From the NCBI GenBank assembly GCA_964453265.1, contig CAYVNU010000003.1, positions 3,957-67,956 of the forward strand: a stretch of 64,000 nucleotides of DNA, written 5' to 3'. Made by a program: the position numbers and the translations under genes. Shown in pieces: positions 4,991 through 64,000 of the stretch. The stretch's first letter is position 1. Every line of letters begins with the position of its first letter. The notes under the pieces were generated by a model. The model was not told the origin of the DNA, did no database searches, and saw nothing but the letters and a program-made list of their open reading frames with translations. The DNA is from an uncultured Candidatus Saccharibacteria bacterium (lineage in GTDB: Bacteria; Patescibacteriota; Doudnabacteria; UBA920).

Positions 4991-5050
4991 AAAAAGTAAA
5001 AATTAAATTTATTATTCCGAAGTTTTTAGAAATTAATTGACACTGAAATG

Positions 5051-8962: not shown

Positions 8963-9050
8963 AAGGTCTTTTCCCAATTTTGGCTTATTTGTAAGGATTT
9001 TAAATATTTGGTCATTTTAATAGCTTATTTACTGTGGTATAATTATTTAA

Positions 9051-10731: not shown

Positions 10732-10734
10732 TAT

Positions 10735-10769
10735 AAAAAAACTCTCCGCTACGAGCGGAGAGTTTTTTT
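10735..10769. terminator. bidirectional rho-independent terminator
   Basis: ctctccgct-acga-gcggagag hairpin flanked by A-run upstream and T-run downstream, between convergent genes. Confidence 0.7.
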
Positions 10770-11093: not shown

Positions 11094-11097
11094 TTTT
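11060..11097. repeat. 9-bp tandem repeat (tttgtcatt x about 4) forming the overlap between Mur ligase C-terminus and tsaB-like N-terminus
   Basis: ttgtcaattttgttcatttttgtcatttttgtcattttt; encodes KNDKNDKNEQN in one gene and MTKMTKMNKIDKN in the other frame. Confidence 0.8.
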
Positions 11098-12612: not shown

Positions 12613-13646
12613 CTTTTAAACACTCTATTAACCGCTCTTAACAAACCATAAAGCCAATATTCAAAAGGCTTAAAAATTATATCATAAGCGCCCGCATATT
12701 CCTTAATAGCATTTTCTAATGTTGAAAAGCCTAATTTAAACCGCACAAACCCTGGCGTGTCCCCGCCCGCAGTTTCTATACCCCAAAAATCGTATTCAGT
12801 AAGACCTGCTACTTTTGCATCTAACATAGCCTTAAAATGAAGTAAGTACGGCGCCATAAGATTTTTATTTTGGTCTGAGGATCCGCCAAATAAATAAGTA
12901 CGGGTTTTTCCGTAGTCTATTATTATTGCGCTGGCTAGCAGTTGCTTGTTGTAAAGCGCCTTATATACATGCAGTTTTAAATCGCCCTGCGGATTCTGAA
13001 TTGCAAAATAGCTAATTAATTTTTCAAAATAGTCTGGGCTTTGCGCTTTATAGCCCTGCCTCTGGGAAGTTTTAGCTATTAATTCTACAGCTTCTTTAGC
13101 TAAAAGTCCTTTGCCGTTTACTAAATGAAATTCGTCTTTAATTTCTACGCCATGTTTTTGCGCTAAGCGAATATTGTAACGCGTCTTATGATGCATGTCC
13201 GCCAAAAGCTCTTCCTCGCTTTTAGTTAAATCTATAACAAGTGTTTTCCCCGGTTGAATATTTTTGGTTTTGCTAACTTGCTTATTTGCTAACTTGCTTA
13301 TTTGTCCCTCTTCTTTAGGCTCTACTCTAATAAAAACCGCATCCACAAATTTCTTTTGCAATCCCTGCAGCAACTCGTCACATGTTACCCGTAACCCGTC
13401 ACCTATTATTGGTCCATAAGGCGCATATAGATAATATTTACCAAAAGGTAAAGACATTTTTATTAACTGCGCTACCCCTACGGTCTCCCCGCTTTCAACT
13501 TGCAACTTTAATCTTGTAACTTGCCGCCCAAGGCCGACCTGCCAGTCGCCCCATTCCCAACTTTGCAAAAAACTGCCCGCTTCTTGGGCAGCAACAAAAT
13601 TATTGTATTCGATTTTTTCATTCTCTAATAATTCCTTAAGCTGCAT
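12609..13646 (-). CDS. FemAB-family aminoacyltransferase (peptidoglycan interpeptide bridge formation)
   Basis: 345 aa, SWEWGDWQ N-terminal motif and overall FemX/FemAB-like layout; 4-nt overlap with upstream Mur ligase gene suggests operon. Confidence 0.6.
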   Translation of the reverse strand: MQLKELLENEKIEYNNFVAAQEAGSFLQSWEWGDWQVGLGRQVTRLKLQVESGETVGVAQLIKMSLPFGKYYLYAPYGPIIGDGLRVTCDELLQGLQKKFVDAVFIRVEPKEEGQISKLANKQVSKTKNIQPGKTLVIDLTKSEEELLADMHHKTRYNIRLAQKHGVEIKDEFHLVNGKGLLAKEAVELIAKTSQRQGYKAQSPDYFEKLISYFAIQNPQGDLKLHVYKALYNKQLLASAIIIDYGKTRTYLFGGSSDQNKNLMAPYLLHFKAMLDAKVAGLTEYDFWGIETAGGDTPGFVRFKLGFSTLENAIKEYAGAYDIIFKPFEYWLYGLLRAVNRVFKR

Positions 13647-13696
13647 ATTTTGAAATTTTGTGTCTATAAATCTTGGTCAATTCTGGTCAATTAAAA

Positions 13697-14251
13697 TTAC
13701 TTTCCAAGTAATTTTAACGCCTGCTTTATTTGCTCGCCCGTAGTTGCCACTGCATCTAACTTGTTAATTATGCTTCTCACTTCATTTTGCTTATACCCTA
13801 AAGCAATAAGTGCATCAAACACCTCACTGCTTCCACCTGTCACCCGTAACCCGTCACCCGTCACTTTTCCTTTTAGCTCCACTATTATTTTCTCCGCTGT
13901 CTTAGTCCCCACTCCCGAAATACGTGTAAAAATTCCGGCATCTTGGTTTGCAATCGCAGATTTTACCGCATCTACCCTTGCTGACGATAGTATAGCTAAA
14001 GCGACTTTCGGACCTACCCCCGAAACAGTAATAAGCATTTCAAAAAACTGCAAAGTGTTAAAGTCAGACAAACCAAAAAGACTCTGTCCGTCCTCGGAAA
14101 CTTTGTGATATATATAGAGCGAAAGACTATGGCCAATTCTGCTTTCTAAAACTTCCGGCGTTACAAAAACCTTATAACCTACGCCTTGATTTTCAAGGAT
14201 TATAAAGTTAGTAGCCTTCTCTAATATTTTTCCTTGCAAAAAAGCAATCAT
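13697..14251 (-). CDS. ruvA: Holliday junction branch migration protein RuvA
   Basis: 184 aa, MIAFLQGKI start, helix-hairpin-helix GVGPKVALAIL motifs; contains in-frame GDGLRVT repeat insert. Confidence 0.9.
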   Translation of the reverse strand: MIAFLQGKILEKATNFIILENQGVGYKVFVTPEVLESRIGHSLSLYIYHKVSEDGQSLFGLSDFNTLQFFEMLITVSGVGPKVALAILSSARVDAVKSAIANQDAGIFTRISGVGTKTAEKIIVELKGKVTGDGLRVTGGSSEVFDALIALGYKQNEVRSIINKLDAVATTGEQIKQALKLLGK

Positions 14252-14376
14252 AAGCTATGAAATTTTAATTAATACAAATCTATAAATGACTACAAAATAA
14301 TCCATTACAAATTCGTAGTTATTTGTAGCGCCCCCATTTAGTAGATTCGTAGTTATTCTACCACCTCCCAAAGCCG

Positions 14377-14405
14377 TTGACAAAAGGCTTAAATTAGCGT
14401 ATACT
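14377..14405 (+). promoter_or_regulatory. consensus sigma-70 promoter TTGACA-N17-TATACT driving the structured RNA locus
   Basis: ttgaca 14377-14382, exact 17-nt spacer, tatact 14400-14405; predicted TSS near 14413. Confidence 0.65.
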
Positions 14406-14413
14406 TTTGCCAA

Positions 14414-14931
14414 CCTGAGTTGGGGGGATTAGCACTGGTGGTCAGCCATGATCATCAGCTTACCCCTCAAGCTCAAGCCAGCTGGCCTTTAGAAGCAGGG
14501 TCAGTTGGCAACGGCAGTCCTACGAGCAATAAGCCTCAGACGTAGGACTGCCGGTAAAAGTTTTAAAAGCCGCAAGCACTGGCTTGCGGCAGGGCACGAC
14601 TAGAACGCAAAGTTCTAGCATCTGAATCGAATATTCAGAGATGAACACACCAAACCCACCATCGGGATTCCCGTCCCAAGTGTGTTCATCCGCCCTTTGA
14701 GGATTCGGCGCGCCTGACAGATCAGGAGCAGGTGTGCCGAGCTGCGGCCAGGTTCCCATTAATTTGGGGAGTTAAAACTCGAGCTCAGAGCTCACCAGCC
14801 GCAGCAAAAAATTAAGGAGGAAAAAATTTTTTGGCCCCTAAAAAGGGCCGATCGGGGGATGAGCATGCAATGGTGCATGCGCTTGCCCTGGGGGCAAGAG
14901 AAAGCGGGTTCAAATCCCCTATCCCCTACCA
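14414..14931 (+). ncRNA. GC-rich highly structured non-coding RNA of uncertain class (candidate tmRNA/ssrA; alternatively unknown sRNA co-transcribed with a tRNA-like gene)
   Basis: About 55-60% GC in a 35-40% GC genome; many perfect local hairpins (13-bp cggcagtcctacg/cgtaggactgccg, 11-bp gatgaacacac/gtgtgttcatc, 9-bp gccgcaagc/gcttgcggc); starts GGGGGAT right after the promoter and ends with T-arm GGTTCAAATCC, acceptor strand ATCCCCT, A73 and CCA; followed by intrinsic terminator; no conserved RNase P or SRP motifs seen. Confidence 0.45.
14854..14931 (+). tRNA. tRNA-like module (cloverleaf with UGG Pro-like anticodon but C at position 33 and one T-stem mismatch; encoded CCA)
   Basis: 7-bp acceptor stem gggggat/atcccct (G1-U72), D-stem gcat/atgc with GG in loop, anticodon stem cttgc/gcaag, loop cctgggg, canonical T-loop gTTCAAATc, discriminator A, CCA 14929-14931; non-canonical C33 keeps confidence low; may instead be the tRNA-like domain of a tmRNA. 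Confidence 0.4.
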
Positions 14932-14993
14932 GTTTTAGGAGTTCGCCTGAGCATTTTTTGCTCGCACTCCAAAAAATTTATCCTCCTCCTTGA

Positions 14994-15028
14994 GGGCGGC
15001 CAGCAACCAGCTGGTCGCCCTTTTTTTT
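14994..15028 (+). terminator. rho-independent terminator after the RNA locus
   Basis: gggcggccagc-aacc-agctggtcgccc stem followed by TTTTTTTT. Confidence 0.75.
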
Positions 15029-15100
15029 ATTCTCACCACTTTATGTGGCTTTTTTTAATTGTAGAAAAATGTTAAAATGAAAATTGGTCATTAATTAACC

Positions 15101-15250
15101 TATTTGTCGTATTAGTCTTATACGTCCTATAGGTCTTATGTGTCCCATAAGACCTATCCGTCCAATTTGTCCTATAAGTCTTAATAAGTCCTATTTGCCT
15201 TATAAGACTTATCAAGCTGTCCGTCCTATCAAGTCCCGTCCTATACAATT
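15101..15250. repeat. array of palindromic GTCCTAT(A/T)AG(A/G)TCTTAT-type repeats upstream of uvrB (candidate operator array)
   Basis: at least six gtcctat copies, embedded palindromes cctatagg, cttataag and aggtcttatg-N4-cataagacct; a related copy at 45345-45382. Confidence 0.6.
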
Positions 15251-15373
15251 TAAGCTTACTTCAAAATTCCAATCCTCCTTCGCCAAGGCTTCCAACTTCG
15301 CCAAGGCTACGTCGGACGAGTCGGCGGACCTATCGTAATAAATTACATCCGATAATAATCGGAGTTTAGTTTT

Positions 15374-17437
15374 ATGAATAAATTTGTACTAAAATCTAAA
15401 TTTAAGCCCGCCGGAGATCAGCCACGCGCGATTGAGGGTCTTTTAAAGTCGCTTAAAGCAAAAAACCGTTTTCAAACTCTACTTGGCGTTACAGGTAGCG
15501 GCAAGACTTTTACTATGGCCAACATAGTAGAAAAAATTCAAAAACCCACACTAATTATTTCCCACAACAAAACCTTAGCCGCGCAACTTGCCGCGGAATT
15601 TCAAGAATTTTTCCCAGACAACGCGGTTCACTATTTTGTCTCGTATTACGATTATTATCAGCCAGAAGCCTACATCCCCCGTTCAGATACCTACATAGAA
15701 AAAGATACCCAAATAAATGAAGAGATCGATCGTTTGAGAAACGCTGCCACCCAAAGTCTTTTGTCTAGAAAAGATGTTTTAATAGTAGCATCTGTTTCCT
15801 GCATTTACGGTCTTGGCGACCCGGCTAACTATTTAGATTTGGCAATGAGTTTTAAAGAAGGAAAGGATTATAAACGAGACAAGTTACTTAGAAGACTAAC
15901 AGATTTACAGTACCACCGTAACGACACAGAACTAGTGCGCGGCACTTACCGCGTGCAAGGTGATGTAGTAGAAATTATCCTTTCGAGCGAAGACACCATT
16001 ATTCTAATGGATTTTTTTGGCGACACGCTAGAAAAAATAGAAAGATTGGATGCCGTAAGTGGACACAAAATAGAAACCTTAGAAGAATTTACCATTTTTC
16101 CCGCTAAGCACTTTGTCACGCCCGAAGAAAAACTAAAAGCTGCTACAGAAAATATTCGTGCAGAAATGTTAGACCGAGTAAAATATTTTAAGTCCCAAAA
16201 CAAACTTATAGAGGCTCAAAGAATAGAACAACGTACAAACTTTGACTTAGAAATGTTAAGTAATACAGGCTTTGTTTCCGGTATAGAAAACTACTCTAGG
16301 CAAATAGAAGGGCGTGAAGCGGGCTCTGCTCCGTCTACTTTAATTGACTACTTTCCCGACGACTTTTTACTTTTTGTAGACGAGTCACATCAAACTATTC
16401 CGCAAATTGGCGCTATGTACGAGGGCGACAAGTCGCGCAAAACCAACTTGGTTGACTACGGTTTCAGACTCCCCTCTGCGCTCGACAACCGTCCGCTTAA
16501 GTTTGATGAATTTGAAAAGAAAATTAATCAAGTCGTTTTTGTTTCAGCAACGCCGGCGCCTTTTGAAATTTTAGCCTCTGTAAACCAAAAAATTCCTAAA
16601 AAGGTTGAGGGTGAAAAATTAATGGTTACCGATGTTAAGCAGACAGACACTATAGTCGAGCAGTTAATAAGACCGACCGGCCTACTCGACCCCACCATAG
16701 AAATAAAGCCCATAAAAAACCAGGTTGATGATTTAATAGAACGCATACATGAACGTATAAAAAAACATCAACGCGTGTTGGTTGCCACACTAACTAAACG
16801 CATGGCCGAGGAACTAACCGAGTACTTAAAAGAAGACGGAGTAAAAGTGCAGTACCTGCACAGCGATGTAGATACTTTTGAACGTTTAGAGATTTTGCGC
16901 GATTTAAGACTTGGCGTTTTCGATGTTTTAGTCGGCATTAACTTACTCAGAGAAGGTTTAGATTTACCCGAAGTTTCTTTAGTTGCAATTCTAGATGCGG
17001 ACAAAGAAGGATTCCTTCGCTCTGAAACTTTCTTTATGCAAATGATGGGCAGAGCAGCGCGTCACCTTGAAGGTCATGTTGTAATGTACGCAGATAGAAT
17101 TACAGGAAGTATGCAAAGAGGGATTGATGAAACCACCCGCAGAAGAAAAATCCAAGAAGCCTACAATAAAAAACACGGTATAACCCCCAAAGGCATACAA
17201 AAAGCTATTGCCGATTCGCGCATGGCAGGCCAAAGGTCCCCCGAAGCTTTAGCGGAGGGGGAAAGCAAACTATATCGTGACCCAAGCCGTATGGACAAAG
17301 AAGAACTAAAATTCTACCTCCACGAACTAGAAGAACAGATGGATTTAGCAGCAAAAAATTTGGAGTTTGAGACAGCCGCAAAGATTCGCGATAGAATTGA
17401 AGAAATAAAAACCTTAAAACGTTTGAGTAAAAAATAA
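15374..17437 (+). CDS. uvrB: excinuclease ABC subunit B
   Basis: 687 aa, GVTGSGKTFTMANI Walker A, UvrB helicase motifs and C-terminal UVR domain (EFETAAKIRDRIEEIK). Confidence 0.97.
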   Translation: MNKFVLKSKFKPAGDQPRAIEGLLKSLKAKNRFQTLLGVTGSGKTFTMANIVEKIQKPTLIISHNKTLAAQLAAEFQEFFPDNAVHYFVSYYDYYQPEAYIPRSDTYIEKDTQINEEIDRLRNAATQSLLSRKDVLIVASVSCIYGLGDPANYLDLAMSFKEGKDYKRDKLLRRLTDLQYHRNDTELVRGTYRVQGDVVEIILSSEDTIILMDFFGDTLEKIERLDAVSGHKIETLEEFTIFPAKHFVTPEEKLKAATENIRAEMLDRVKYFKSQNKLIEAQRIEQRTNFDLEMLSNTGFVSGIENYSRQIEGREAGSAPSTLIDYFPDDFLLFVDESHQTIPQIGAMYEGDKSRKTNLVDYGFRLPSALDNRPLKFDEFEKKINQVVFVSATPAPFEILASVNQKIPKKVEGEKLMVTDVKQTDTIVEQLIRPTGLLDPTIEIKPIKNQVDDLIERIHERIKKHQRVLVATLTKRMAEELTEYLKEDGVKVQYLHSDVDTFERLEILRDLRLGVFDVLVGINLLREGLDLPEVSLVAILDADKEGFLRSETFFMQMMGRAARHLEGHVVMYADRITGSMQRGIDETTRRRKIQEAYNKKHGITPKGIQKAIADSRMAGQRSPEALAEGESKLYRDPSRMDKEELKFYLHELEEQMDLAAKNLEFETAAKIRDRIEEIKTLKRLSKK

Positions 17438-17493: not shown

Positions 17494-18249
17494 CTACTTT
17501 CCTACTACCCTCTCATACTTCTCCGCGCTTTGCCAAGCCATTTCAAAAATGGTTTTAAGGGAAGTTACCACGCCTTTGCTGGTAATAACCACGACAAATA
17601 AGTAAGGCGAATAAGAAAAAAAGGCTACACTGTCTTTAAAAAAAACATTGTCGGTTAGAAATTGCATATTTTTTGGCACAAATCTGTTTTCATAAAATTC
17701 GTGCTGCGGCATTTTACGCGCGTGGATTAAGTCTTCCGCACTTTGCGTTAAGAGTTCCCGTACTTTTATTTTTTTTGCCAAAGCCATATTCTTTAATTCG
17801 CCCGGCATATATTCAAACGCACCCATTACGTCGGAAATATTACAAAAAAAATCTACCTCAGGGGAGGCAAAAACTTTTTTGTAAACTTCCAAAACACCCT
17901 CTTTGCCTTCAAACAACTGAATTTGCGGCTTTTCAACTTTTGCGTTATAAAGCGCCAGCATATTCGGCATAAACCTTTTTACCATTTCCTGCTTTTTGTG
18001 TAAGTCCCCTATTATTTTTTCCGGGCTCTCTGCGGTATAGAGAGCTTTTTTTGCGCGTGGCACCACGCTAACCAAACCTTTTTTTACCAACTGTTCCAAA
18101 ATTAAATAGGTAGTCGGCCGCTTTATTTCCGCTTTATTGGAAATGGGGTGCACCGTAGCAGTACCCAATTCCAAAAGCGCCAAATAAACTTGCGCTTCCT
18201 TTTCGTCTAAACCTACTTGTTTTAATACATTTACTATTTCCATGTGCAT
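17494..18249 (-). CDS. TrmB-family transcriptional regulator
   Basis: N-terminal winged-helix LGLDEKEAQVYLALLELGTATVHPISNKAEIKRPTTYLILEQLVKKGLV typical of TrmB sugar-responsive regulators. Confidence 0.7.
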   Translation of the reverse strand: MHMEIVNVLKQVGLDEKEAQVYLALLELGTATVHPISNKAEIKRPTTYLILEQLVKKGLVSVVPRAKKALYTAESPEKIIGDLHKKQEMVKRFMPNMLALYNAKVEKPQIQLFEGKEGVLEVYKKVFASPEVDFFCNISDVMGAFEYMPGELKNMALAKKIKVRELLTQSAEDLIHARKMPQHEFYENRFVPKNMQFLTDNVFFKDSVAFFSYSPYLFVVVITSKGVVTSLKTIFEMAWQSAEKYERVVGK

Positions 18250-18254
18250 TTATT

Positions 18255-18375
18255 CCTTCTCCTTTTAAGGAGAGGGTTAGGGAGAGGTTGAATTCTATAG
18301 ATAGCAACAATACTACATGTCATCCCGGCCTGCGACATTATCCTCCGTAGCTTTAGCGAAGGATGGAGCCGGGAT
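18255..18375. repeat. composite intergenic repeat: palindromic element (family A) plus CCGTAGCWTTAGCGAAGGA element (family B) flanked by atcccggc/gccgggat inverted repeat
   Basis: ccttctccttttaaggagagggttagggagagg at 18255-18287 resembles in-gene copies at 12386-12424 and 62899-62934; ccgtagctttagcgaagga at 18345-18363 matches 24072-24090. Confidence 0.6.
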
Positions 18376-18503
18376 CCAGTTTAATTAGCTATTTCCATTA
18401 TATTCCCCTTTCTCATTTTTGTCAACTTTTCTGACAAATAAATAATACTTAATGAATATACCTATAAACAAAGCTATTTAGTATATTTAATTAGTCATAC
18501 TTA

Positions 18504-18532
18504 TTGACTATATGCTAAATTTATGACATAAT
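18504..18532 (+). promoter_or_regulatory. sigma-70-like promoter TTGACT-N17-CATAAT upstream of GC-rich gene
   Basis: ttgact 18504-18509, 17-nt spacer, cataat 18527-18532. Confidence 0.45.
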
Positions 18533-18644
18533 TGCAAGTTATAAAAAATAACAGTCCAGGGAGCCTGCGGGACTAAAAACTTGGGGTGATACTCTGGCGA
18601 GAGTTTCTAAATACGCGTGACAATCCTGAAGGAGGATTTAAAAA

Positions 18645-19358
18645 ATGCCTGCATATACGATCGCTGACTTCGCCCGGAAACACAAAGGCCTGCGTGTGAT
18701 CGCCCGCCGCCATGCGGTGTACAACAAACCCGTGCTTGGACTGGACGCCCTTACAATGGCTGCGCTCATCTACTCGCGCACCATTGACCCGCAACTTCTT
18801 GGCCTAAGTGCCGAGGGCATGGAACAGATGTACAACCAGGGCGAGCTGCTTGCGGAAATGGGACTTGTTCCTGACCGCATAGTCACAGGCATTGACCTGC
18901 GCAACTGGGAAGGCGGGATGCAAACCGTCGCTGCCATCAAGGCCAAAACCGGCAATGTAGTTCCCTGCCACCGCAGCCCGGCCGTAACCTATCCGTACTA
19001 CGATGCCATGAAGACCGTAGAGGTGTATGAAAAGTACGGTGACCAGGCCGTACACGCTTACCTGTCCGAACAGCCCGGAACGGAAGGACTGTGGACTGAG
19101 TCGGCCGCGGACTTTATGAACCGGATCGAAATGTCAGTTGCGTCAGTAGCGTGGCCGGGAATCACGCTATTTGATCTCAACTTCGAGCAAATGACATTCC
19201 TGCATTTCCACCTTGTCGAGCACCTGCGGCAAGTTGAGATTCCATTTGGCCCCGACGCCTGGTGTCCTAAAAACGGCGGAGGGATCGTCATCGCCAACGA
19301 CGACGCTGTGGGCGAGTTCCACCCGGATCTCACCATGGTTATCAAGATCGTAAGCTAG
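18645..19358 (+). CDS. hypothetical protein encoded on a GC-rich (about 58%) island; likely horizontally acquired
   Basis: 237 aa ORF with strong SD ggagga 8 nt upstream; codon usage/GC sharply different from flanks; many spurious overlapping ORFs in other frames typical of GC-rich DNA; followed by 9-bp-stem hairpin gggagagac/gtctctccc. Confidence 0.6.
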   Translation: MPAYTIADFARKHKGLRVIARRHAVYNKPVLGLDALTMAALIYSRTIDPQLLGLSAEGMEQMYNQGELLAEMGLVPDRIVTGIDLRNWEGGMQTVAAIKAKTGNVVPCHRSPAVTYPYYDAMKTVEVYEKYGDQAVHAYLSEQPGTEGLWTESAADFMNRIEMSVASVAWPGITLFDLNFEQMTFLHFHLVEHLRQVEIPFGPDAWCPKNGGGIVIANDDAVGEFHPDLTMVIKIVS

Positions 19359-19462: not shown

Positions 19463-19786
19463 ATGAAATTATTACTCAAAGGCTTAGGCGCAAGCCAAGG
19501 CACAGTAGAGGGTGAAGCTAAAATCTTTTTACCCGGGGAAGCTAATAAAGACTTTCCGGAAGGCGCGATTTTAGTTACCACCTTAACCGACCCGACCATG
19601 GTTCAGGCCATGGTTAAAGCCGTAGGTATTGTTACAGATATTGGCGGCATCACTTCTCACCCAGCAATTTTAAGTCGGGAAATGGGTATTCCTTGCGTAG
19701 TTAGCACTAAACAAGGTACTCAAATAATTAAAGACGGGATGAAAATTTTTATTGACGGTACAAAAGGAGAAGTTTATGCCGTATAA
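19463..19786 (+). CDS. stand-alone PEP-utilizing enzyme mobile (phosphohistidine swivel) domain protein
   Basis: GIVTDIGGITSHPAILSREMGIPCVVS matches GGxTSHAAIxARExGIPxVVG motif of PEP synthase/PPDK central domain; start set at MKLLLKG. Confidence 0.75.
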   Translation: MKLLLKGLGASQGTVEGEAKIFLPGEANKDFPEGAILVTTLTDPTMVQAMVKAVGIVTDIGGITSHPAILSREMGIPCVVSTKQGTQIIKDGMKIFIDGTKGEVYAV

Positions 19787-19829: not shown

Positions 19830-20954
19830 ATGATTCAATCTGCCAATTCAAAAGAAATTCCAGAGAATAAAAACTGGATTAGAGATTTTGCCCAAGCGTC
19901 TTTTAAACTATATTCGGGTAATACTATAGATGCATTCCAGCCTCTAGACTTTTTTCATTTTTACCCGCTCTGGTACGATTTATGGGTAAACAGATTTATG
20001 TCTGTAATGGATGTTTTACAATGCGATTATAAAAGCTATCAAGAATTAAAACACTTATTACCCGTACCTTCCAGTATGAGAGCAATTTTACAAAAGCTCA
20101 TCCCAACTTTTGCAGGCGTAGACCCCATGCATGCAAAAAACTTTGGTAGGATGGCAAATTTTTTCACGCGCATGCTTAAAGAAAGCTGTGCGGAAGACCC
20201 TTTTGGTTTTAGCCACAACCCTCTTCATACCAGAAATGAACTAAACGAAATAATTCAAAACACCCCCTGGCAACCAGCAACTCCCGAAATTGCCAAACAA
20301 CTAGGACAACTAATTACCGCAGCCGGCTCCTTAGTGCACGGCTTATATAATGACGTAGTTACAGATTTCGGTTGGGATGCCTATGGACCTTACAACATAG
20401 TTTTGCCTGAAAAAAAATATCAAATAATTATTCGTCACTTTCCAGATCTTGCGCCAAAAGAAATATGGGAAAGTAAATTTTTAACACCGGTTCAAGATAT
20501 AAAAATCTATCAATTTTACGAAAACGTAGAATGGGAATTAGCTTTTTTAGGCTGCCATACAGTGCTTAAATCGGGTAGCCCAGTACTTGGATTAAAATAC
20601 TTTGCCATATCTATAAACGAAAAATTTATTACCCCAAATATTATACAGCCCATAATACAAGAATTTAGCGAAAAAGCTGTTAGCATATATAAAGAAATTA
20701 GAAAAAAAGATTTTGAAGAATTAAAACAATTGGTAATGATTCAAGAATGCTACCAACTACACAAAATATTTTCTGCCGCCTACATGAACTGGCAGCCTAC
20801 GGAAGAAATGTTGGAAAAAATAAAAAACCAACCTCTTACTTCTAACTTATTACCTTTTGGCAGATTAATGACCAGCCTTGATGAATACAAAGAACTTTTT
20901 CATATAAATAAATTCGAAAAAGAAGTTTTAGACTTTCCCACTGTTAAGGCATAA
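19830..20954 (+). CDS. hypothetical protein (374 aa), possibly partner of the mobile-domain protein
   Basis: long ORF with lineage-typical codon usage, no recognisable motif. Confidence 0.5.
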   Translation: MIQSANSKEIPENKNWIRDFAQASFKLYSGNTIDAFQPLDFFHFYPLWYDLWVNRFMSVMDVLQCDYKSYQELKHLLPVPSSMRAILQKLIPTFAGVDPMHAKNFGRMANFFTRMLKESCAEDPFGFSHNPLHTRNELNEIIQNTPWQPATPEIAKQLGQLITAAGSLVHGLYNDVVTDFGWDAYGPYNIVLPEKKYQIIIRHFPDLAPKEIWESKFLTPVQDIKIYQFYENVEWELAFLGCHTVLKSGSPVLGLKYFAISINEKFITPNIIQPIIQEFSEKAVSIYKEIRKKDFEELKQLVMIQECYQLHKIFSAAYMNWQPTEEMLEKIKNQPLTSNLLPFGRLMTSLDEYKELFHINKFEKEVLDFPTVKA

Positions 20955-21184: not shown

Positions 21185-21865
21185 ATGAAAAATCATATTA
21201 TTCTTTTGGCCACGCTATGCGTGGCCACCCTGTGTCCAAGGGGGGCGCTTGGACAATGGGAGGCCGAGGCGCGGCTGGCGCCTCACACTCCCAAAGAATT
21301 TTCGGAAGGACATGGCGAGTCCTTCCGGAACGTGGGGGAGGCATGGTTCCGTCTCCCCTCCCTGCGGGGTTTCCGCGGGGAAACAGGAGCCTTCCGGACC
21401 GGCGACTCGTTTGTCGCCGTGTTCGGAGTTGAAAAGGAGTTGGCACACGACCAACTCCTGCCAGGCATTTTTGCCTGGGTTGATTCCGGCGGCATCCGGC
21501 CTGCCGCTGGGATCTCGTGGGCTCGGCATAGCCGAGTAGCTTTAGAGGGGCACGCCATTATGGCGTCCCCGAAAAAACTGCTCGGCCGCAGTGACGCAAG
21601 CCTAAGCCTCACAAGAGGCTTTGCGCTTGGTGTTACTGCCGAGCTAGACCCTGCCCCACACGGCAGGGCGTGGGGTTTGGGGCCTCACGTTAAAAAACAA
21701 ATCAAAGGAGCCGAGCTGGTGCTCGGCCACCTTTGGAAAATTGAAGGGGAAGGAGCCGAACGCCACGGCGAACCTTCCACTCACCCCATGAACCGCGAAT
21801 GGTTCGTGGGTATTAAATTCGCTCTCGGCCACCCCAAGGCCGAGGGCAAAAAATCTCACCACTAG
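21185..21865 (+). CDS. secreted hypothetical protein on second GC-rich (about 62%) island; possible outer-membrane beta-barrel/lipid A deacylase-like
   Basis: N-terminal signal peptide MKNHIILLATLCVATLCPRGALGQ, glycine/aromatic-rich, C-terminal EWFVGIKFALGHP; all six frames open across 21198-21862 as expected for GC-rich coding DNA. Confidence 0.5.
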   Translation: MKNHIILLATLCVATLCPRGALGQWEAEARLAPHTPKEFSEGHGESFRNVGEAWFRLPSLRGFRGETGAFRTGDSFVAVFGVEKELAHDQLLPGIFAWVDSGGIRPAAGISWARHSRVALEGHAIMASPKKLLGRSDASLSLTRGFALGVTAELDPAPHGRAWGLGPHVKKQIKGAELVLGHLWKIEGEGAERHGEPSTHPMNREWFVGIKFALGHPKAEGKKSHH

Positions 21866-22306: not shown

Positions 22307-22719
22307 TTAATTTGTATAAAGTATTATGTATTGGGTATTGGGTATAAGGCTTCTACAGCTCTTAATTAAACCATGTATTAACTTATCGCACTTTAATGAT
22401 TGGTTTTCGATCTCCCTATACTTTTCTTCTTCTAAATAACCAATTCCTTTACTTAAATCTGCCTGGCTCCTAACTTCTGTTAGAGAGCCCAAAGCTGTAT
22501 AATAAAATTGAATCTTTTCCTTAAATGAATTTCTGCTAAAGCCTTCGCAATATTTGAAGCAATGGAAATTACAGCCCGTCTTATTTGCGATGTAATGCCA
22601 AACAATTCTTCTTTTGGAAAATTTTTAGTAATCTTATAGACTAAAATAGCTAGATTATAAGCTTCCTGCCAAGCGTATAAATCACGAAATGATTGTATTT
22701 TGTTTTGCGCCTTATACAT
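22307..22719 (-). pseudogene. four-helix-bundle protein gene (23S rRNA intervening-sequence protein family) disrupted by a -1 frameshift
   Basis: N-terminal part QSFRDLYAWQEAYNLAILVYKITKNFPKEELFGITSQIRRAVISIASNIA then frame change; +2 frame continues EGFSRNSFKEKIQFYYTALGSLTEVRSQADLSKGIGYLEEEKY, i.e. the family consensus NIAEGFxRxSxKEFxxFLxIAxGSLxE; a single missing G at about 22541-22547 restores the frame. Confidence 0.7.
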
Positions 22720-22743: not shown

Positions 22744-23763
22744 TTATTTTTTATTTATCAAATTGACTACTAGCTTTACCATTACTTCCTTCTGGCCTCT
22801 GTCGCTCTCCGCAACTAAGAGCGCCAGAGCAGCTAAAGCGGTGTCGTTAATTTTTCGCTCACCCTTTTTATTAAGCAGATAATTATTTTCAACTAAGAAA
22901 AGTAAAAACAACAAAGACCCAATGCGTTTATTGCCATCAACAAACGGATGGTCCTTAATACAAAAATAAAGCAAATGAGCAGCTTTTTCTTCTATGGAAG
23001 GATACAAAACTTTTTTATCAAAAGTCTGTTCAATGTTGCCTAAAACAGCTTTAAATTTTTCCCCCACCTCTTGCCCAAACAAACCACCCGCTTCTTTTTT
23101 AACTCCCAACCTTTGTTTAAATTGTAAAATAGATTTTTTTACCTCTTCATACTTTAGACTTTTAGACTCTTTCTTGCTTACGTCCTCTATTTTTAGCTCG
23201 CCTTTGTCATACAAATTCAAAACCGCCCAAGTGTTGGCATAGTCAGAAATAATACTTAACAGTTCTTTTTCGTAACCTGTGGCTTTTTGCGCCTGTATTA
23301 AATTCTGAAATAATTTAACAGTTTGCTGAAGTTCTTTTAAATGTAAATCATGTTCCTTCTTTAATTCCGTAAGCCTTTTTTCATTAACCGCATAGCCTTT
23401 AAGCAAATAATCTTTTAGCCTCTGAGTCGCCCAAATACGGAATTGAGTGCCGCGTTTAGACCTAACTCTATACCCCACAGATATAATTACATCTAGGTTG
23501 TAAAAATTTACAGACCTCTCTACTTGCTTTGAACCCTCGGTTTGAACTACCCGGAATTTCCGGGTAGTTTGATTTTGGCTTAATTCAGCCTCTTTATAAA
23601 GACTCTGGATATGTTCCGATATGGTATCCCTATCTTTATCAAACAGGTCAGCCATTTGAGCCTGATTAAGCCAAACAGTTTCGTCTTCTAATTTTACTTG
23701 AATCTCTGTGCCCGTCTGATCCTTGTATATAATAATTTCACCTTTTTTTATTTCTTCGGTCAT
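22744..23763 (-). CDS. RhuM-family N-terminal domain fused to Fic/DOC domain protein
   Basis: N-terminal WLNQAQMADLFDKDRDTISEHI...RKFRVVQTEGSKQVERSVNFYNLDVIISVGYRVRSKRGTQFRIWAT matches RhuM virulence-protein family; C-terminal HPFVDGNKRIGS is the Fic HPFx[DE]GNGR motif with K for G. Confidence 0.7.
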   Translation of the reverse strand: MTEEIKKGEIIIYKDQTGTEIQVKLEDETVWLNQAQMADLFDKDRDTISEHIQSLYKEAELSQNQTTRKFRVVQTEGSKQVERSVNFYNLDVIISVGYRVRSKRGTQFRIWATQRLKDYLLKGYAVNEKRLTELKKEHDLHLKELQQTVKLFQNLIQAQKATGYEKELLSIISDYANTWAVLNLYDKGELKIEDVSKKESKSLKYEEVKKSILQFKQRLGVKKEAGGLFGQEVGEKFKAVLGNIEQTFDKKVLYPSIEEKAAHLLYFCIKDHPFVDGNKRIGSLLFLLFLVENNYLLNKKGERKINDTALAALALLVAESDRGQKEVMVKLVVNLINKK

Positions 23764-24079: not shown

Positions 24080-27028
24080 TTAGCGAAGGAGAGTCATTTC
24101 TTCCATCTCTCCCCAATTATCCCCCACCTTGCCTTCCACTTTTATAGGAACCGAAAGTGATATAGCTTGTTCCATCATTGGAATTAACTTCTTCGCCCAC
24201 TCCTCCACTTTGTCTTCCTTTACCTCAAAAACCAATTCGTCATGCACCTGAAGTAGCATGCGAATTTCCGAGCTTATTGGCTTATTAGCTGAACCGATTA
24301 TTAGCTTGTGAATATTAATCATCGCCACTTTAATTACATCGGCCGCCAAACTCTGAATAGGAAAATTCACTGCCGCTCTTTCCGCTGCCGCGCGTATAAA
24401 AAATTGCCCTGACTTTATTTCCGGAAACTTTCGCATTCGGCCTAGCTCATTACGTACAAAACCTTCTTGGTTAACTTGGAGCTTTACCTGCTCTATATAC
24501 TGCTCAACCTGGGGGTAAGCTTCAAAATATTTTCTTATGTATTGTTTCGCGTCGCCCATTGTCATTTCGCCAACTCGTGCCGATAAACCAAAACTAGATA
24601 CTCCATACAAAATTCCAAAGTTAATAGTTTTGGCATCACGCCGCATATCTTTTGTAAGTTGTTCTGATGATACGCCAAAAATTTCCATAGCCGTCTTACT
24701 ATGAATATCTTCACCATTCTTAAACACTTCCATCATCTTTTTGTCTTTAGCCAAATGCGCCACAATGCGAAGCTCTATTTGGGAATAGTCTAAAGACAAA
24801 AGTTTATAACCTTTTTCCGCCACAAAGGCTTTTCTTACCTGACTGCCCAAGCCTTCACCCCGCACAGGGATGTTCTGCAAATTAGGGTCAATGCTGGAAA
24901 GCCGCCCCGTTGCCGCAATAGTTTGGTTATAACTCGTATGTAGCCTGCCGGTTTTTTTATTTACCATTTCCGGTAAAGTTGTAAGATAGGTACTATACAA
25001 CTTTGTAACCTCTCTATACTCTAAAATTTTTGGAATTATGTCGTGCTGTCCAAGCATCTTCTCCAAGTTATCAGCAGAAGTTGAAACGCCCGTCTTAGTG
25101 CGCTTGTTATTCGTCGCCTCAAGCTTCATTTCGTCAAACAAAACTTCTTTAAGCTGCTTAGGCGAAGCTATATTAAATTCGTGTCCGGCTAATTTATGAA
25201 TTTTCTTTTCTAAATCTTTAATATCTATTTCCGCCTCCCCGGCAAGACGGTTTAAAAGCCTAACGTCTAACTTAATGCCGTTTAATTCCACGTCTGCTAA
25301 AACTTCCATTAAGGGCATTTCTATTTCTGTAAATACTTTAGTAAGATTATTCTTTTTAAGTTCCGGTTCAAACAACTCTTTTAAACGCAAAGTCATATCT
25401 ACGTCTTCACAGCAATACCAACTGACTTTCTCCTTTGGTACTTGATCCATTGTGATTTGGTTCTTACCGACCCCAATTAGATCGGTTATGGGCTGCATTT
25501 GGTAGCCCAGTTCGTTAAAAGCCAAAGCATCTAAACCGTGCTGTCGAGTACCGGCGTTAAGCAAGTACGATGCGATCATGGTATCAAAACTAGCAGTAAG
25601 TTGTAAGTTGTAAGTTGTAAGTACTTGCTTGTCGTACTTTATGTTGTGACCAATTAACTTAACCTTACCCGATGTAAGCAGGGTTTTTAGTTCAGTCGAT
25701 GATGTAAAAAGTTTCGCCGGAACATAAAAAGCCTTACCTGGCTTATCGCATAACCCAACTCCCACTAATTCCGCGGTAATTGGGTCAAGGCCTGTGGTTT
25801 CTGTGTCTACACTAATTTCTAAAGCAGATGACAATCCCTTCATCATCTTCTGTAATTTTTCTTCTGTATCAACAAACTCATAATCCTGCTTTCCAATACT
25901 ACCACCTCCCCCGCCTGCGGCGGGTACTCCTCCTGTTCCAGGAGGAGAGCTTCCACCGTCGCTAAAACTACGGCGGTCAGTCTGCAGCTCGCCCGACGAA
26001 GCCTTGGCGAAGTCGGGAGCCTCCCCTCCTAATATAGGAGGGGTGTCGCCGTTAGGCGACGGGGTGGTATTTTTCGGCAACTTATTCAACAAATTCCTAA
26101 ACTCCAAACTCTGAAATAACTTCACAGTCTGTGACAAATGTTCTTGGTCTAATTCGTAAGCTTTTATTTCCGGGTCTATGCCCGGCACGTTGCACACTAT
26201 AGTAGAAAGTTCGTAAGACATTTTAGCCTGATCTTCCTGCTCAAGCAATAAATTAAGTATTCTGGATTTGAAATTGGAAATTTTAAAATTATTTGGAAAT
26301 TGGAAATTGGAAATTGGAAATTTGGCGCCTTGGGTTTTAGCTTCAAGATGCAATTTATCGTACAATTTTTCCAATGATCCAAAATATTTAATTAACTCGC
26401 TGGCGCCTTTCTCTCCTATGCCTTTAACTCCCGGAATGTTGTCACTCGGGTCACCTCTTAAAGCTTTGTAGTCCACCATTTGGTCAGGGTTCAGCCCAAA
26501 CCTAGCTCTTACCGCTTTACTGTCGTATATAACTGTATCTGCAAGTCCTTTGCGCGGCGTGTAAATTTTTACTTTGCCGTTTACTAACTGCAAAGTATCC
26601 ATATCGCCGGTTAAAATAAATATTTCAGAATTCTCGTGACTTTTTTCATGAAAGTGTTTAGACAGCGTGCCTAAAACGTCATCCGCCTCAAAACCTTCCT
26701 TTTCGTAAATTGGCACATTCATTGCGCGCAACACATTTTTAATAACCGGTATTTGGTCGTACAAAGCCTGGTCAGCTTTTACTCTGGTTGCTTTATATTC
26801 TTTATATTTTTCATGCCTAAAAGTCGGCCCGGCTAAGTCAAAAGTCGCAGCTACATGAGTAGCCTTAATTTCCTTCATGGCCTTTAAAAATATAGTTAAA
26901 AACCCAAATACGGCGCCCGTCGGCCTACCGTCTTTGGTAGTTAAAGTAGGCAAAGCATGGTACGCCCTATGTACCAAAGCATTACCGTCTATAAGTAAAT
27001 AACGTTCTTTTTGTACTTTTTCCGGCAT
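24080..27028 (-). CDS. polA: DNA polymerase I (5'-3' exonuclease, 3'-5' exonuclease and polymerase domains) with low-complexity inserts
   Basis: 982 aa; 5' nuclease N-terminus, polymerase motifs LSLDYSQIELRIVAHL (motif A) and QVHDELVFE (motif C); GC-rich insert 25899-26072 and 7-bp microsatellites inside the linker. Confidence 0.93.
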   Translation of the reverse strand: MPEKVQKERYLLIDGNALVHRAYHALPTLTTKDGRPTGAVFGFLTIFLKAMKEIKATHVAATFDLAGPTFRHEKYKEYKATRVKADQALYDQIPVIKNVLRAMNVPIYEKEGFEADDVLGTLSKHFHEKSHENSEIFILTGDMDTLQLVNGKVKIYTPRKGLADTVIYDSKAVRARFGLNPDQMVDYKALRGDPSDNIPGVKGIGEKGASELIKYFGSLEKLYDKLHLEAKTQGAKFPISNFQFPNNFKISNFKSRILNLLLEQEDQAKMSYELSTIVCNVPGIDPEIKAYELDQEHLSQTVKLFQSLEFRNLLNKLPKNTTPSPNGDTPPILGGEAPDFAKASSGELQTDRRSFSDGGSSPPGTGGVPAAGGGGGSIGKQDYEFVDTEEKLQKMMKGLSSALEISVDTETTGLDPITAELVGVGLCDKPGKAFYVPAKLFTSSTELKTLLTSGKVKLIGHNIKYDKQVLTTYNLQLTASFDTMIASYLLNAGTRQHGLDALAFNELGYQMQPITDLIGVGKNQITMDQVPKEKVSWYCCEDVDMTLRLKELFEPELKKNNLTKVFTEIEMPLMEVLADVELNGIKLDVRLLNRLAGEAEIDIKDLEKKIHKLAGHEFNIASPKQLKEVLFDEMKLEATNNKRTKTGVSTSADNLEKMLGQHDIIPKILEYREVTKLYSTYLTTLPEMVNKKTGRLHTSYNQTIAATGRLSSIDPNLQNIPVRGEGLGSQVRKAFVAEKGYKLLSLDYSQIELRIVAHLAKDKKMMEVFKNGEDIHSKTAMEIFGVSSEQLTKDMRRDAKTINFGILYGVSSFGLSARVGEMTMGDAKQYIRKYFEAYPQVEQYIEQVKLQVNQEGFVRNELGRMRKFPEIKSGQFFIRAAAERAAVNFPIQSLAADVIKVAMINIHKLIIGSANKPISSEIRMLLQVHDELVFEVKEDKVEEWAKKLIPMMEQAISLSVPIKVEGKVGDNWGEMEEMTLLR

Positions 27029-61370: not shown

Positions 61371-61789
61371 GAATGACAAGATTTAAGACAACTTGCCCGG
61401 GTGATTTTTAATAGCGGTATTGCGTGAAGCCGTCATAATAGCTGTTATTTCGTCAGCCTCTTTTAACAAATCTTCAACAAAAGATAGTTCTACAATTTCT
61501 GAAGCGATTAATAATTCAAGCCAGCCTAAAGTTTCGTCAGATTCTTCAACCACCGTACCCATTTTAGAAATAAAGTCTTTAGGAGACTTGCATCTGCATG
61601 CTGCGCGGTAGTTACTAAAAACACTGGTTCCTGAGCGCATTATTTGGTCACCAATTTTTTTGCCTGTATTTCCGTGGTTCTTTTCTAGGTATTGTGCAAG
61701 TTTTATTATACTAACCGCAAACTTTTTTGTTCTGGCTTTTAATTCGTTGGGATTCATAATCATTTAAATCATTTAAATCTTGTCATTCT
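61371..61789. mobile_element. inverted-repeat-flanked cassette around the intact four-helix-bundle gene (IVS-like hairpin element)
   Basis: gaatgacaagatttaa (61371-61386, overlapping stop codon) and its reverse complement ttaaatcttgtcattc (61774-61789, 11 nt upstream of start codon); extra atttaaatga direct repeats on both sides. Confidence 0.55.
61383..61763 (-). CDS. four-helix-bundle protein (23S rRNA intervening-sequence protein family), intact copy
   Basis: FAVSIIKLAQYL...IGDQIMRSGTSVFSNYRAACRCKSPKDFISKMGTVVEESDETLGWLELL matches TIGR02436-type consensus. Confidence 0.7.
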   Translation of the reverse strand: MIMNPNELKARTKKFAVSIIKLAQYLEKNHGNTGKKIGDQIMRSGTSVFSNYRAACRCKSPKDFISKMGTVVEESDETLGWLELLIASEIVELSFVEDLLKEADEITAIMTASRNTAIKNHPGKLS

Positions 61790-62469: not shown

Positions 62470-63453
62470 TTACAGCGTTGTAATTGGTCTGCTTTGGGTA
62501 ATATAAAATTTTCCTTTTTCAAAAGCCCATTCAATATCTTGCGGTTGTTTGTAGTGCTGTTCAATTTTTTTGCAAATTTTTGCAAGTTCTACAATTTGTT
62601 TTCCGGAAAGTTTTTGCTTGCCGCCTTCTTTTGTAGAAAGTCTTTTATTTATGTTACCTTTTTCAGTTTTTACAATTTTCATATTTTGCTCAGAAATATT
62701 TATGTTCAAAATAGAAAAATCTTTTTTGTCTATTATGTAGGTGTCAGGGGTTATAAGTCCCCCGACTATAGCTTCGCCCAAACCAAAGCCGCCTTCTATA
62801 ACCATTTGATTGTAGTTTTTAGTAACCGGATGCACGGTAAAGCAAATGCCGGAAACTTCGCTCTGCACCATTTTTTGAACAACCACGGCTACACTAATAC
62901 CTCCTCTCCCTTTGGGAGAGGGTTGGGGTGAGGGTTCCTTTTGTTTGGTTGCCTTGTAAAACCCTTTCTCAAACCCGTAAAATATAGCTCTAGGTGTAAA
63001 TAAAGAAGACCAGCACATTTTAACCTGCTTGATCAGATTTTTTTCAGTAACATTTAGGTAAGTTTCTAACTCCCCTGCCCACGAGGCAGTTTTGCTGTCT
63101 TCGGCTGTAGCGGAAGATCTGACAGCAACAAACTTTGCACCAAGTTTTTTATATTCGCCTGATATTTCTTTTTGTAAATTTTCTGGCATCTTTTCCTCTA
63201 ATATTAGTTTTCGTATTTCGCTACTTGCTTTGTCTATGGAACTTATGTCTTTAGGGTTTACTTTTTTTAAAATCAACTGTATGCCAGCCTTGATTTTAGT
63301 TTCTTGTATAAACTTGTCAAAAGCCCCGGCTAAAACTACAAAACCCGGCGGTACGTTTACTCCTGCTTTGCTCATTTCACCCAAAGACGCACCCTTACCT
63401 CCGGCAATTTTTACGTCCTTTTTAGAAAGTTGTAAAAAAGTTTTTATGTTCAT
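62470..63453 (-). CDS. PEP synthase/pyruvate phosphate dikinase N-terminal ATP-binding (PPDK_N) domain protein with in-frame palindromic-element insertion
   Basis: KIAGGKGASLGEMSKAGVNVPPGFVV nucleotide-binding motif; SPQPSPKGRGG segment encoded by repeat at 62899-62934. Confidence 0.75.
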   Translation of the reverse strand: MNIKTFLQLSKKDVKIAGGKGASLGEMSKAGVNVPPGFVVLAGAFDKFIQETKIKAGIQLILKKVNPKDISSIDKASSEIRKLILEEKMPENLQKEISGEYKKLGAKFVAVRSSATAEDSKTASWAGELETYLNVTEKNLIKQVKMCWSSLFTPRAIFYGFEKGFYKATKQKEPSPQPSPKGRGGISVAVVVQKMVQSEVSGICFTVHPVTKNYNQMVIEGGFGLGEAIVGGLITPDTYIIDKKDFSILNINISEQNMKIVKTEKGNINKRLSTKEGGKQKLSGKQIVELAKICKKIEQHYKQPQDIEWAFEKGKFYITQSRPITTL

Positions 63454-63458
63454 AAAAA

Positions 63459-63950
63459 TTATTTAATTTTCCTCACAATCCCCTTGTTAGCATCTACTTC
63501 AACCATGTCTCCATCCTTAAAAACTTTGGTAGCGATTTTAGTGCCGATTATGCAAGGAACGCCGAGTTCTCGCGAAACTATGGCTGCGTGGGAAGTTATA
63601 CCACCCATATCAGAAATTATTGCCGAGCATTTTTTTAGCGCAGGCATTAAATCGGCAGTTGTGGTGTGAGATACAAGAATACAGCCCTTAAAGGCCTTTT
63701 TAAAGTCTTGGCCTGGGTTTATTATTACAGCCTTGCCTTGCACTATACCGGGGTAGGCAACCTGTCCTTTAATTTGTGAAATCTTATTGTTGTTAAAGTT
63801 TATAATTTTTTTATATATTATTCCCCACTCTTTTTTGCTTAAATTAAAAGCATTGCCATTAAAAAAAATAGTTCCCGAAACAGGGGTATATTTTACACCA
63901 GGGAAGATTCGTTTATGTGAACACAAATATAAAAATTGTTTAAAATTCAA
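63459..63950 (-). CDS. PEP-utilizing enzyme mobile (phosphohistidine) domain protein
   Basis: ISDMGGITSHAAIVSRELGVPCIIGT phosphohistidine motif; immediately upstream of the PPDK_N gene on the same strand. Confidence 0.75.
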   Translation of the reverse strand: MNFKQFLYLCSHKRIFPGVKYTPVSGTIFFNGNAFNLSKKEWGIIYKKIINFNNNKISQIKGQVAYPGIVQGKAVIINPGQDFKKAFKGCILVSHTTTADLMPALKKCSAIISDMGGITSHAAIVSRELGVPCIIGTKIATKVFKDGDMVEVDANKGIVRKIK

Positions 63951-64000
63951 ATTTAAAATTTCAACTACCGGTAAATTTAGTTGTTTGGAAAGTTTTTTTG

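Follow-up and report, generated by a model that had tools for sequence, protein, structure and literature searches.

Two-component small-molecule dikinases form a recently defined subfamily, represented by HpeHI in Rhodococcus, CreHI in Corynebacterium and the phenylphosphate synthase PpsAB(C) in Thauera, in which an ATP-grasp subunit and a distinct substrate/swivel subunit together act as a dikinase by way of a phosphohistidine (PMC12167813). The rifampin phosphotransferase (RPH) RPH-Lm (5fbs/5fbt/5hv1; PMC4844700) is a single polypeptide of ~865 aa. That an RPH-like dikinase can be split is already known. Here we describe two loci in a 64,000-nucleotide stretch of contig CAYVNU010000003.1, hereafter the window, from an uncultured, ultra-small member of the Patescibacteria or candidate phyla radiation (CPR). 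Locus 1 contains a stand-alone ATP-grasp gene and the end of a swivel-bearing partner gene, and the second locus encodes a free phosphohistidine swivel followed by a protein that we call X. We consider it probable, if well short of certain, that both loci are parts of one modular phosphohistidine-swivel dikinase system typical of Patescibacteria, in which a single charger would probably supply a number of acceptor modules that differ in substrate. The system is related to rifampin phosphotransferase and the phenol kinases rather than to phosphoenolpyruvate (PEP) synthase. The CPR-wide combination of one ATP-grasp gene with arrays of short, highly diverged partners appears new, as do the three-way split with a free swivel of ~107 aa, the X acceptor domain, and a conserved cassette in which genes for a histidine-phosphatase-like protein, the swivel and X come under a TrmB regulator. 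In the literature we found no paper describing the CPR partner arrays, the three-way split, X or the cassette, and no CPR-specific description of these genes.

The likeness to PpsAB, CreHI and HpeHI lies in a separate ATP-grasp (PPDK_N) subunit of ~35-40 kDa, in a partner that, in the relatives, joins a putative N-terminal substrate domain to a C-terminal swivel with the GGxTSHAA His motif (motif as given in PMC12167813), in the position of the partner gene directly upstream of the ATP-grasp gene, and in the lack of a TIM barrel. By homology, ATP would be expected to yield AMP, Pi and a phosphorylated acceptor through phosphohistidine. The CPR systems differ in that their partners are shorter (350-520 versus ~610-640 aa), that up to nine diverged partner paralogs accompany a single ATP-grasp gene, that aromatic-catabolism genes are absent from the gene context, and that the profile of the partner N-domain has no sequence match to any solved structure; the three-way split into charger, free swivel and X has no counterpart there. 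The CPR system would share with RPH-Lm the same three functional modules and, as far as the sequences indicate, the same mechanism. RPH-Lm is also the best structural match of the CPR partner and a strong match of the ATP-grasp protein (E 1.5e-56), and in one related locus (L026) the CPR domains are fused in the RPH order. Unlike in RPH, each window protein covers one domain only, and the scores with the RPH model NF041857 are 264.7, 46 and 85 bits, far under its cut-off of 999; there is no sign of rifamycin as substrate, and X is unrelated to the rifamycin (RIF)-binding domain. Alpha-glucan, water dikinase (GWD) resembles locus 1 in domain order, with the His domain preceding a C-terminal PPDK_N (PMC13553574), but it is a single chain with N-terminal carbohydrate-binding modules (CBMs), whereas the window has separate genes.

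The ATP-grasp/nucleotide-binding subunit of locus 1 is a protein of 327 aa, encoded at 62470..63453 on the minus strand, in which Pfam PPDK_N (PF01326, E 1e-96) is the only domain and spans the whole protein, with 2-311 of 328 profile positions covered. The motifs GGKGASLGEM, VAVRSSATAEDS and QDIEWA are kept. In NCBIfam, PpsA models matched best, over their N-terminal third (NF005057 with 327.7 bits at positions 6-337 of 798), followed by the RPH model (264.7 bits, positions 6-313 of 864), and all were under the full-length cut-offs. Matches in the Protein Data Bank (PDB) by sequence included the archaeal PpsA 8a8e (E 5e-67), the RPH ATP-grasp domain 5hv6 (E 1.5e-56) and 9goj (E 2e-42); compared with HpeI, the CPR protein is thus closer to PpsA and RPH (229.9 and 195 bits versus 149 bits for 9goj). 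Among 8,000 candidate homologs scored, 7,994 were significant. The 120 homologs listed were all 287-374 aa long, carried PF01326 as their only domain and were 64-100% identical to the window protein; the source names given were Patescibacteria, Doudnabacteria and the like, and metagenomes. Full-length PpsA proteins (742-767 aa) appeared in DPANN archaea and in a single metagenome-assembled genome labelled as CPR, with no more than 38-42% identity. The recurrence of the split form among the 7,994 homologs indicates that stand-alone PPDK_N, at ~311 aa, is an abundant and conserved gene type in Patescibacteria, and not a broken ppsA. Its usual neighbours are one to nine tandem genes that join a diverged N-domain to a C-terminal swivel.

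An earlier note on this DNA had described, on the minus strand, a swivel-domain gene followed by a PPDK_N gene, the reverse of the PEP synthase order, with the PEP-binding TIM-barrel domain lacking. Pfam annotation confirmed both domains (PPDK_N at E 1e-96, PEP-utilizers at E 1.6e-24) and their order. No sequence resembling PEP-utilizers_C was found in a six-frame translation of the window, up to base 64000, with three PpsA C-domains as queries; the same queries matched archaeal full-length PpsA loci, which served as a positive control. An artefact, be it a ppsA that errors in sequencing or assembly have broken up or a pseudogene in decay, would account for the adjacency of two of the three PpsA domains and for a similarity to PpsA that is only superficial. 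We assign this explanation an almost vanishing probability. The domain order is reversed, and between the two genes one reads a clear stop codon, 5 nt of spacer and then an ATG. Neither does any frame of the window contain the TIM barrel, the same split form is seen among the homologs, including all 120 of those listed, and the genes of the X cassette are under purifying selection, as judged by third-codon-position divergence. A ppsA split by frameshifts across 63453-63459, which the earlier note had named as the finding that would overturn its reading, is therefore excluded.

The PPDK_N gene also contains a GC-rich palindrome of the type CCTCTCCC-loop-GGGAGAGG in frame (62903-62921), which adds the loop 'QKEPSPQPSPKGRGG' to the protein; this loop is missing from a homolog with 92% identity (P0002). 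Similar inserts rich in P, S, G and R occur at the same PPDK_N site in homolog P0003 and in L012. Further in-frame palindromes of this type lie inside open reading frames (ORFs) at 11806-11827, 12390-12410, 25927-25947 and 26023-26043. They resemble in-frame palindromic mini-elements such as the RPEs of Rickettsia.

Directly upstream of the ATP-grasp gene, and on the same strand, lies a partner gene with a swivel (63459..64000, minus strand; PEP-utilizers E 1.6e-24), of which only the 3' part, at least 180 codons, falls inside the window and whose stop codon at 63459-63461 leaves a gap of 5 nt to the PPDK_N ATG at 63453. The swivel domain occupies ~63480-63689, with the catalytic His codon at 63588-63590. 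The fragment carries GGITSHAAIVSR with His137, which fits the swivel motif GGxT(S/C)HAA, and the catalytic GGITSH motif is retained both here and in the swivel of the second locus. The claim that the swivel gene starts at 63950 did not hold, since the TTG at this position is merely the first start usable by the ORF lister, and a stand-alone swivel gene is not established for locus 1. Up to base 63998, where the last codon in frame lies, the window shows neither a stop nor an ATG for this ORF, and the gene therefore continues beyond it. Thus, the ORF is a truncated part of a larger gene and not a protein of 163 aa. A profile of H-like proteins, as we call the partners composed of an N-domain (Hn) and a swivel, aligned with residues 45-179 of the fragment at E 7e-65, covering the swivel and the preceding hairpin-helix element.

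Complete partners are seen in related loci. In the syntenic relative L003/L005 (CAZDIP010000002.1), which has the same downstream genes (23S-IVP, rsmI, yebC and ruvC), four genes with C-terminal swivels, coding for 504, 499, 480 and 353 aa, stand in tandem ahead of the PPDK_N gene. The 353-aa protein is at the position orthologous to the window partner and is similar to it only in the swivel, where the two are 55% identical. Swivel-bearing genes beside PPDK_N number four in L003, at least four in L001, two in L007, four in L010 and five in L014; in general, loci other than L003 have one to five such genes within 10 kb of PPDK_N. The longest array, in L029 (PKTJ01000012.1, Parcubacteria; 3463-16527), contains nine tandem H-like genes. 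Several of its annotated products are 304-366 aa long and thus far shorter than the stop-to-stop ORFs of 488-520 codons, which shows that public start-codon calls in the H-like family are often too far downstream.

The H-like N-domains belong to no Pfam family and no CBM was detected in them. By phmmer, 28 of the 39 N-terminal sequences tested form one family. Within one array the swivels are 50-60% identical and the N-domains only 18-22%, as expected if all partners dock on one charger but bind different substrates. Searches of the PDB by sequence, with a profile of 17 N-domains and with a single N-domain, gave no match, and the link to RPH runs only through a structure model. An AlphaFold2 model of the H-like member P0183 had a pLDDT of 84, with values above 90 for residues 70-304. 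The top PDB matches of this model by Foldseek were six RPH-Lm entries (E 5e-13 to 4e-11; best 5fbt, E 5e-13), with 268-275 aligned columns of 304 residues at 23-25% identity, whereas PPDK, PpsA, pyruvate kinase and enzyme I (EI) matched only over the ~119-residue swivel. The modelled fold of the H-type partner is thus shown to be similar to RPH, with only the C-terminal half of the N-domain included in the model. Together with the two-component layout in the relatives, this match supports the suggestion of the earlier note that the genes encode an ATP-dependent phosphotransferase of the RPH/PEP-synthase-like type for an acceptor outside central metabolism.

Small PaaX-like regulators with a Cas2-like PaaX_M domain adjoin arrays of ATP-grasp and H-like genes in L003 (657-1187, minus strand, E 4e-21) and L012 (7730-8266, plus strand, E 3e-9); no such gene is seen beside locus 1 in the window.

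The second locus contains a free-standing phosphohistidine swivel of 107 aa at 19463..19786 on the plus strand (PEP-utilizers E 3.2e-25), which we propose to be a phosphocarrier. As stated in the earlier note, it stands alone between two proteins of no recognizable kind, and both flanks are without a Pfam family. The ORF reads 19400/19463-19786, the ATG at 19463 being set as the start by the orthologs and by the public annotation, in which the 107-aa form is on record. The catalytic His66 is encoded at 19658-19660. Orthologs of 105-112 aa are located directly upstream of X in L012, L025, L026, L030 and a 730-kb JGI contig. The window swivel matches the X-linked swivels at E 1e-50 to 1e-52 and the H-type swivels at ~1e-20 to 1e-25.

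Protein X, of 374 aa (19830..20954, plus strand), follows the free swivel and had no sequence match in Pfam, NCBIfam, PADLOC or the PDB. An exhaustive HMMER search placed the family in 190 representative clusters at 50% identity; the named members are all Patescibacteria, and the close homologs are all annotated as hypothetical. Domain mapping covered the 269 members gathered. X stands alone in 241 of these and is part of a swivel-X fusion in 17, an X-X fusion in six, a swivel-PPDK_N-X fusion in two, an X-PPDK_N fusion in one and an X-swivel fusion in one; no domain was found in the remaining member. The fusions tie X to both dikinase domains, at the place that the PEP-binding domain holds in PpsA, as far as domain order can tell. 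Because proteins of other genomes join X to the swivel, to PPDK_N or to the two together, we propose that it may be the missing third domain of the split dikinase, a new acceptor domain.

AlphaFold2 modelled X with high confidence (pLDDT 93, pTM 0.91), as helices (12-172), six strands (183-262) and further helices (269-367). A Foldseek search with this model yielded no match, either in the PDB, where the best E was 0.35 and TM did not exceed 0.15, or in BFVD, where the best E was 0.027; all TM values were below 0.2. In the alignment of the family, 28 columns are invariant; they are rich in His, Asp, Cys, Asn and Trp and include H170-G-x-Y-N-D175, D179, W182 and G241-C-H243. L025 encodes tandem X paralogs at ~30% identity. 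That X is a diverged H-like N-domain was ruled out by an hhalign probability of 1.2%, and a TIM barrel or a RIF-binding domain by the lack of a Foldseek match.

A different assignment of X would be the replacement of the TIM barrel in a non-orthologous split PEP synthase, with PPDK_N, the free swivel and X interconverting pyruvate and PEP as part of central carbon metabolism. The homologous ATP-grasp protein and swivels do give their best-scoring sequence matches to PpsA, both among the models (NF005057, 327.7 and 112 bits) and among the archaeal structures. The order of swivel and X, in genes as well as in fusions, parallels that of swivel and C-domain in PpsA. X contains an invariant Gly-Cys-His motif, and PpsA, PPDK and EI have a catalytic Cys in their PEP domain; a phosphoglycerate mutase (PGM)-like protein is always adjacent. 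However, PpsA is a single chain of PPDK_N, swivel and PEP-utilizers_C, whereas the window has separate genes, a reversed order at locus 1 and no PEP/pyruvate TIM barrel, and the PpsA equivalog scores of 327.7 and 109 bits are below the cut-off of 598. The modelled arrangement of helices, six-stranded sheet and helices is not a TIM barrel, and Foldseek found no match to the C-domains of PPDK, PpsA or EI. Moreover, X is far rarer than stand-alone PPDK_N, a TrmB-type regulator of its own would be unusual for a housekeeping gluconeogenic step, and the tandem paralogs and X-X fusions suggest diversified substrates. We therefore regard a split PEP synthase as quite unlikely and favour X as an acceptor domain for other substrates.

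The gene neighbourhood of X is conserved. In seven of seven contexts (the window, L012, L025, L026, L027, L030 and the JGI contig) the swivel is directly upstream of X or fused to it, and a protein of 230-320 aa is encoded beside the pair. Judged from these sequences, the conserved order of the cassette is TrmB regulator, histidine-phosphatase-like protein, swivel and X. The window member of the 230-320-aa proteins is a distant histidine-phosphatase-like protein (PGM/SixA-type, branch 1) of 237 aa at 18645..19358 on the plus strand. It belongs to no Pfam family, and NCBIfam gave only a weak phosphoglyceromutase match (E 0.006). L025 has an ortholog with 75% identity at the equivalent position, L027 has a distant homolog (E 9e-7) that carries an FRHG motif, and the partners in L012 and L026 match His_Phos_1 below threshold (Pfam E 1e-3 and 0.024; 19.3 and 14.8 bits versus a cut-off of 21.7). 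Residues R22, H23, R160 and H187 are invariant across five cassette partners, the first motif reading RHA in the window and RHG in L027 and L012. These residues fit the catalytic core of the histidine-phosphatase superfamily, of which the protein is a candidate rather than a proven member. Its role might be to reset the phospho-carrier or to process the product.

The histidine-phosphatase-like gene is GC-rich (GC 0.56, GC3 0.67-0.69) in the window (18645-19358), in L025 (4854-5552) and in L027 (7155-7892), in three different genomes of 0.38-0.41 GC, and the adjacent X gene has a GC3 of 0.31-0.41. Between the most distant pair of copies, amino-acid identity is no more than ~26%. The 237-aa ORF clearly codes for a protein, with third positions differing at 56% as compared to 16-18% at positions 1 and 2. 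Structured RNA as an explanation of the GC-rich islands was ruled out by this divergence pattern and by the lack of any Rfam family at the gathering threshold.

The TrmB-family helix-turn-helix regulator is encoded at 17494..18249 on the minus strand, divergently from the operon of the 237-aa protein, swivel and X, with an intergenic region at 18250-18644. Homologous TrmB genes (PF01978) occupy the same divergent position in L025, L027, L030 and the JGI contig, so that TrmB is present in five of the seven contexts. A site matching the sigma-70 consensus (TTGACA-17-TATAAT) at 12 of 12 positions, a consensus match only, is located upstream of the TrmB gene (18425-18397, minus strand), and a 10/12 sigma-70 site at 18504-18532 on the plus strand faces the operon, so that a divergent promoter region may lie here. 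Promoter-like sites in total were not above the shuffle expectation. The swivel-X gene of L027 overlaps at its end with one for a xylose-isomerase-like TIM-barrel protein. The TrmB regulator and this one sugar-isomerase-like neighbour hint weakly at a carbohydrate as the substrate of X.

The same cassette could be read as a regulatory phosphorelay, in which the free swivel would be an HPr/NPr-like carrier, set by the ATP-grasp protein and reset by a SixA-like histidine phosphatase, that controls X or TrmB with no small molecule being phosphorylated. A free swivel of ~107 aa, a conserved partner of the histidine-phosphatase superfamily with an invariant R-H...R...H pattern, and a dedicated regulator in five of the seven cassettes are all in line with such a relay, and in E. 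coli SixA dephosphorylates phosphohistidine carriers. We nevertheless hold a purely regulatory role to be unlikely. X is large, very conserved in its 28 invariant columns and repeatedly fused to catalytic domains in enzyme-like orders, and the histidine-phosphatase assignment is weak, with Pfam scores under the cut-off. Furthermore, the characterised relatives are all enzymes (PMC12167813).

We therefore return to a dikinase in which X is an acceptor module, and to the relation between its swivel and the ATP-grasp protein of locus 1. In L026, located in the complete genome CP064975.1 (Candidatus Moraniibacteriota), the genes for the histidine-phosphatase-like protein, swivel and X are followed by a continuous ORF of 1521 aa (7077-11642) that overlaps X by one base and encodes PPDK_N-Hn-swivel-Hn-swivel, which is an RPH-order fusion plus a second partner unit; the gene table has only the last 578 aa as a called gene. 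In L012, PPDK_N is located 1 kb upstream of swivel-X. The X-PPDK_N fusions and the clustering in these two genomes support a single system, in which the ATP-grasp protein would charge both kinds of swivel.

Several observations weigh against this interpretation. The ATP-grasp gene is ~42 kb away from swivel-X in the window, five of the seven X cassettes have no adjacent PPDK_N, and the X family is, as noted above, far rarer than stand-alone PPDK_N; the use of the window ATP-grasp protein as the charger of swivel-X would follow from rare fusions and two clustered genomes. At locus 1, the N-terminal domain of the partner falls outside the window, and the first 44-72 residues of the fragment gave no significant match by phmmer, jackhmmer or a profile search with the first 72 residues. 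In addition, the annotated P0183 that was modelled is probably truncated at its N-terminus, the stop-to-stop ORF of 488 codons spanning the whole N-domain profile. The two loci could accordingly be unrelated, with locus 1 encoding an RPH-like two-component kinase for xenobiotics or antibiotics, and swivel-X being charged by PEP, by another kinase or by the histidine-phosphatase-like protein as phospho-donor. Besides the distance and the five cassettes without a nearby PPDK_N, the X-associated swivels form a subgroup of their own. This explanation is nonetheless improbable in our view, as X-PPDK_N and swivel-PPDK_N-X fusions exist, PPDK_N is contiguous with swivel-X in L026 and close to it in L012, and the window, like each related locus, shows only one PPDK_N gene. 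A function in anti-phage defence was ruled out, with no PADLOC model matching any component.

In the single system that we favour, the ATP-grasp protein (62470-63453) would bind ATP, move its beta-phosphate to the swivel His and release AMP and Pi, as suggested by its homology to PpsA, PPDK and RPH. The phosphorylated swivel, tethered or free, would then dock on an acceptor domain and hand the phosphate to the acceptor-bound substrate. Two kinds of carrier are predicted. The first would be the locus-1 partner (63459 to beyond 64000), whose family in the relatives has a diverged helical RPH-type N-domain and one to nine paralogs per single ATP-grasp gene, and the second the free 107-aa swivel (19463-19786), serving the adjacent X (19830-20954). 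By analogy with the characterised enzymes, the acceptors may be hydroxyl-bearing small molecules.

A more far-reaching and only tentative version would be an ATP-driven phosphohistidine relay of interchangeable parts, in which one charger serves free or tethered swivels, up to nine RPH-like paralogs and X, an unrelated acceptor that would be a lineage-specific domain of new fold, while the histidine-phosphatase-like enzyme and TrmB control the X branch. Such a relay would recall the phosphotransferase system (PTS), where phosphate passes from EI to HPr, in that a small diffusible phosphohistidine carrier might move between charger and acceptors; the His domain of EI and the swivel are homologous, and a partner of the histidine-phosphatase superfamily, as in SixA, is present. 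It would differ from the PTS in that the donor is presumably ATP through the ATP-grasp protein and not PEP, the carrier is a swivel and not an HPr fold, and there are no enzyme II components. If true, organisms of minimal metabolism would possess a PTS-like hub-and-spoke phosphorylation network powered by ATP, and the reaction catalysed by X would be of a kind that has not been described so far.

The Patescibacteria make up a large share of bacterial diversity, yet the majority of the genes specific to their lineages lack an assigned function. Abundant genes labelled 'pyruvate, water dikinase' or 'hypothetical' can now, by homology, be tied to the mechanism of phosphohistidine swivel dikinases, and such annotations should not be counted as gluconeogenic capacity in metabolic reconstructions. 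The system is delimited as one charger with many acceptors. The X family, with a confident model, no relative in the PDB and dikinase fusions in several orders, is a target for new phosphoryl-acceptor chemistry. The paralog arrays suggest substrate diversification, for scavenging or detoxification, which is relevant to an epibiotic lifestyle.

The window as a whole has a G+C content of ~38% and carries genes for ruvC, yebC, rsmI, uvrB and a 23S rRNA intervening-sequence (IVP) family protein, the last identified by Pfam at 61383-61763 on the minus strand; no rRNA or other Rfam family was found in the 64 kb. Two ORFs on the minus strand, of 79 aa (22480-22719) and 339 aa (22744-23763), are those whose syntenic counterparts in L025 are an IVP and a RhuM/Fic-family protein. 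A second GC-rich island at 21185-21865 (GC 0.59, locally up to 0.62) contains an ORF of 226 aa with a signal-peptide-like N-terminus, rich in Gly, Ala, Arg and His, with no Pfam or PADLOC match and with many GC-rich hairpins inside. At the same position in L025 there is an ORF of 216 aa (GC 0.545) with a hydrophobic N-terminus, in which only 27% of the aligned residues match.

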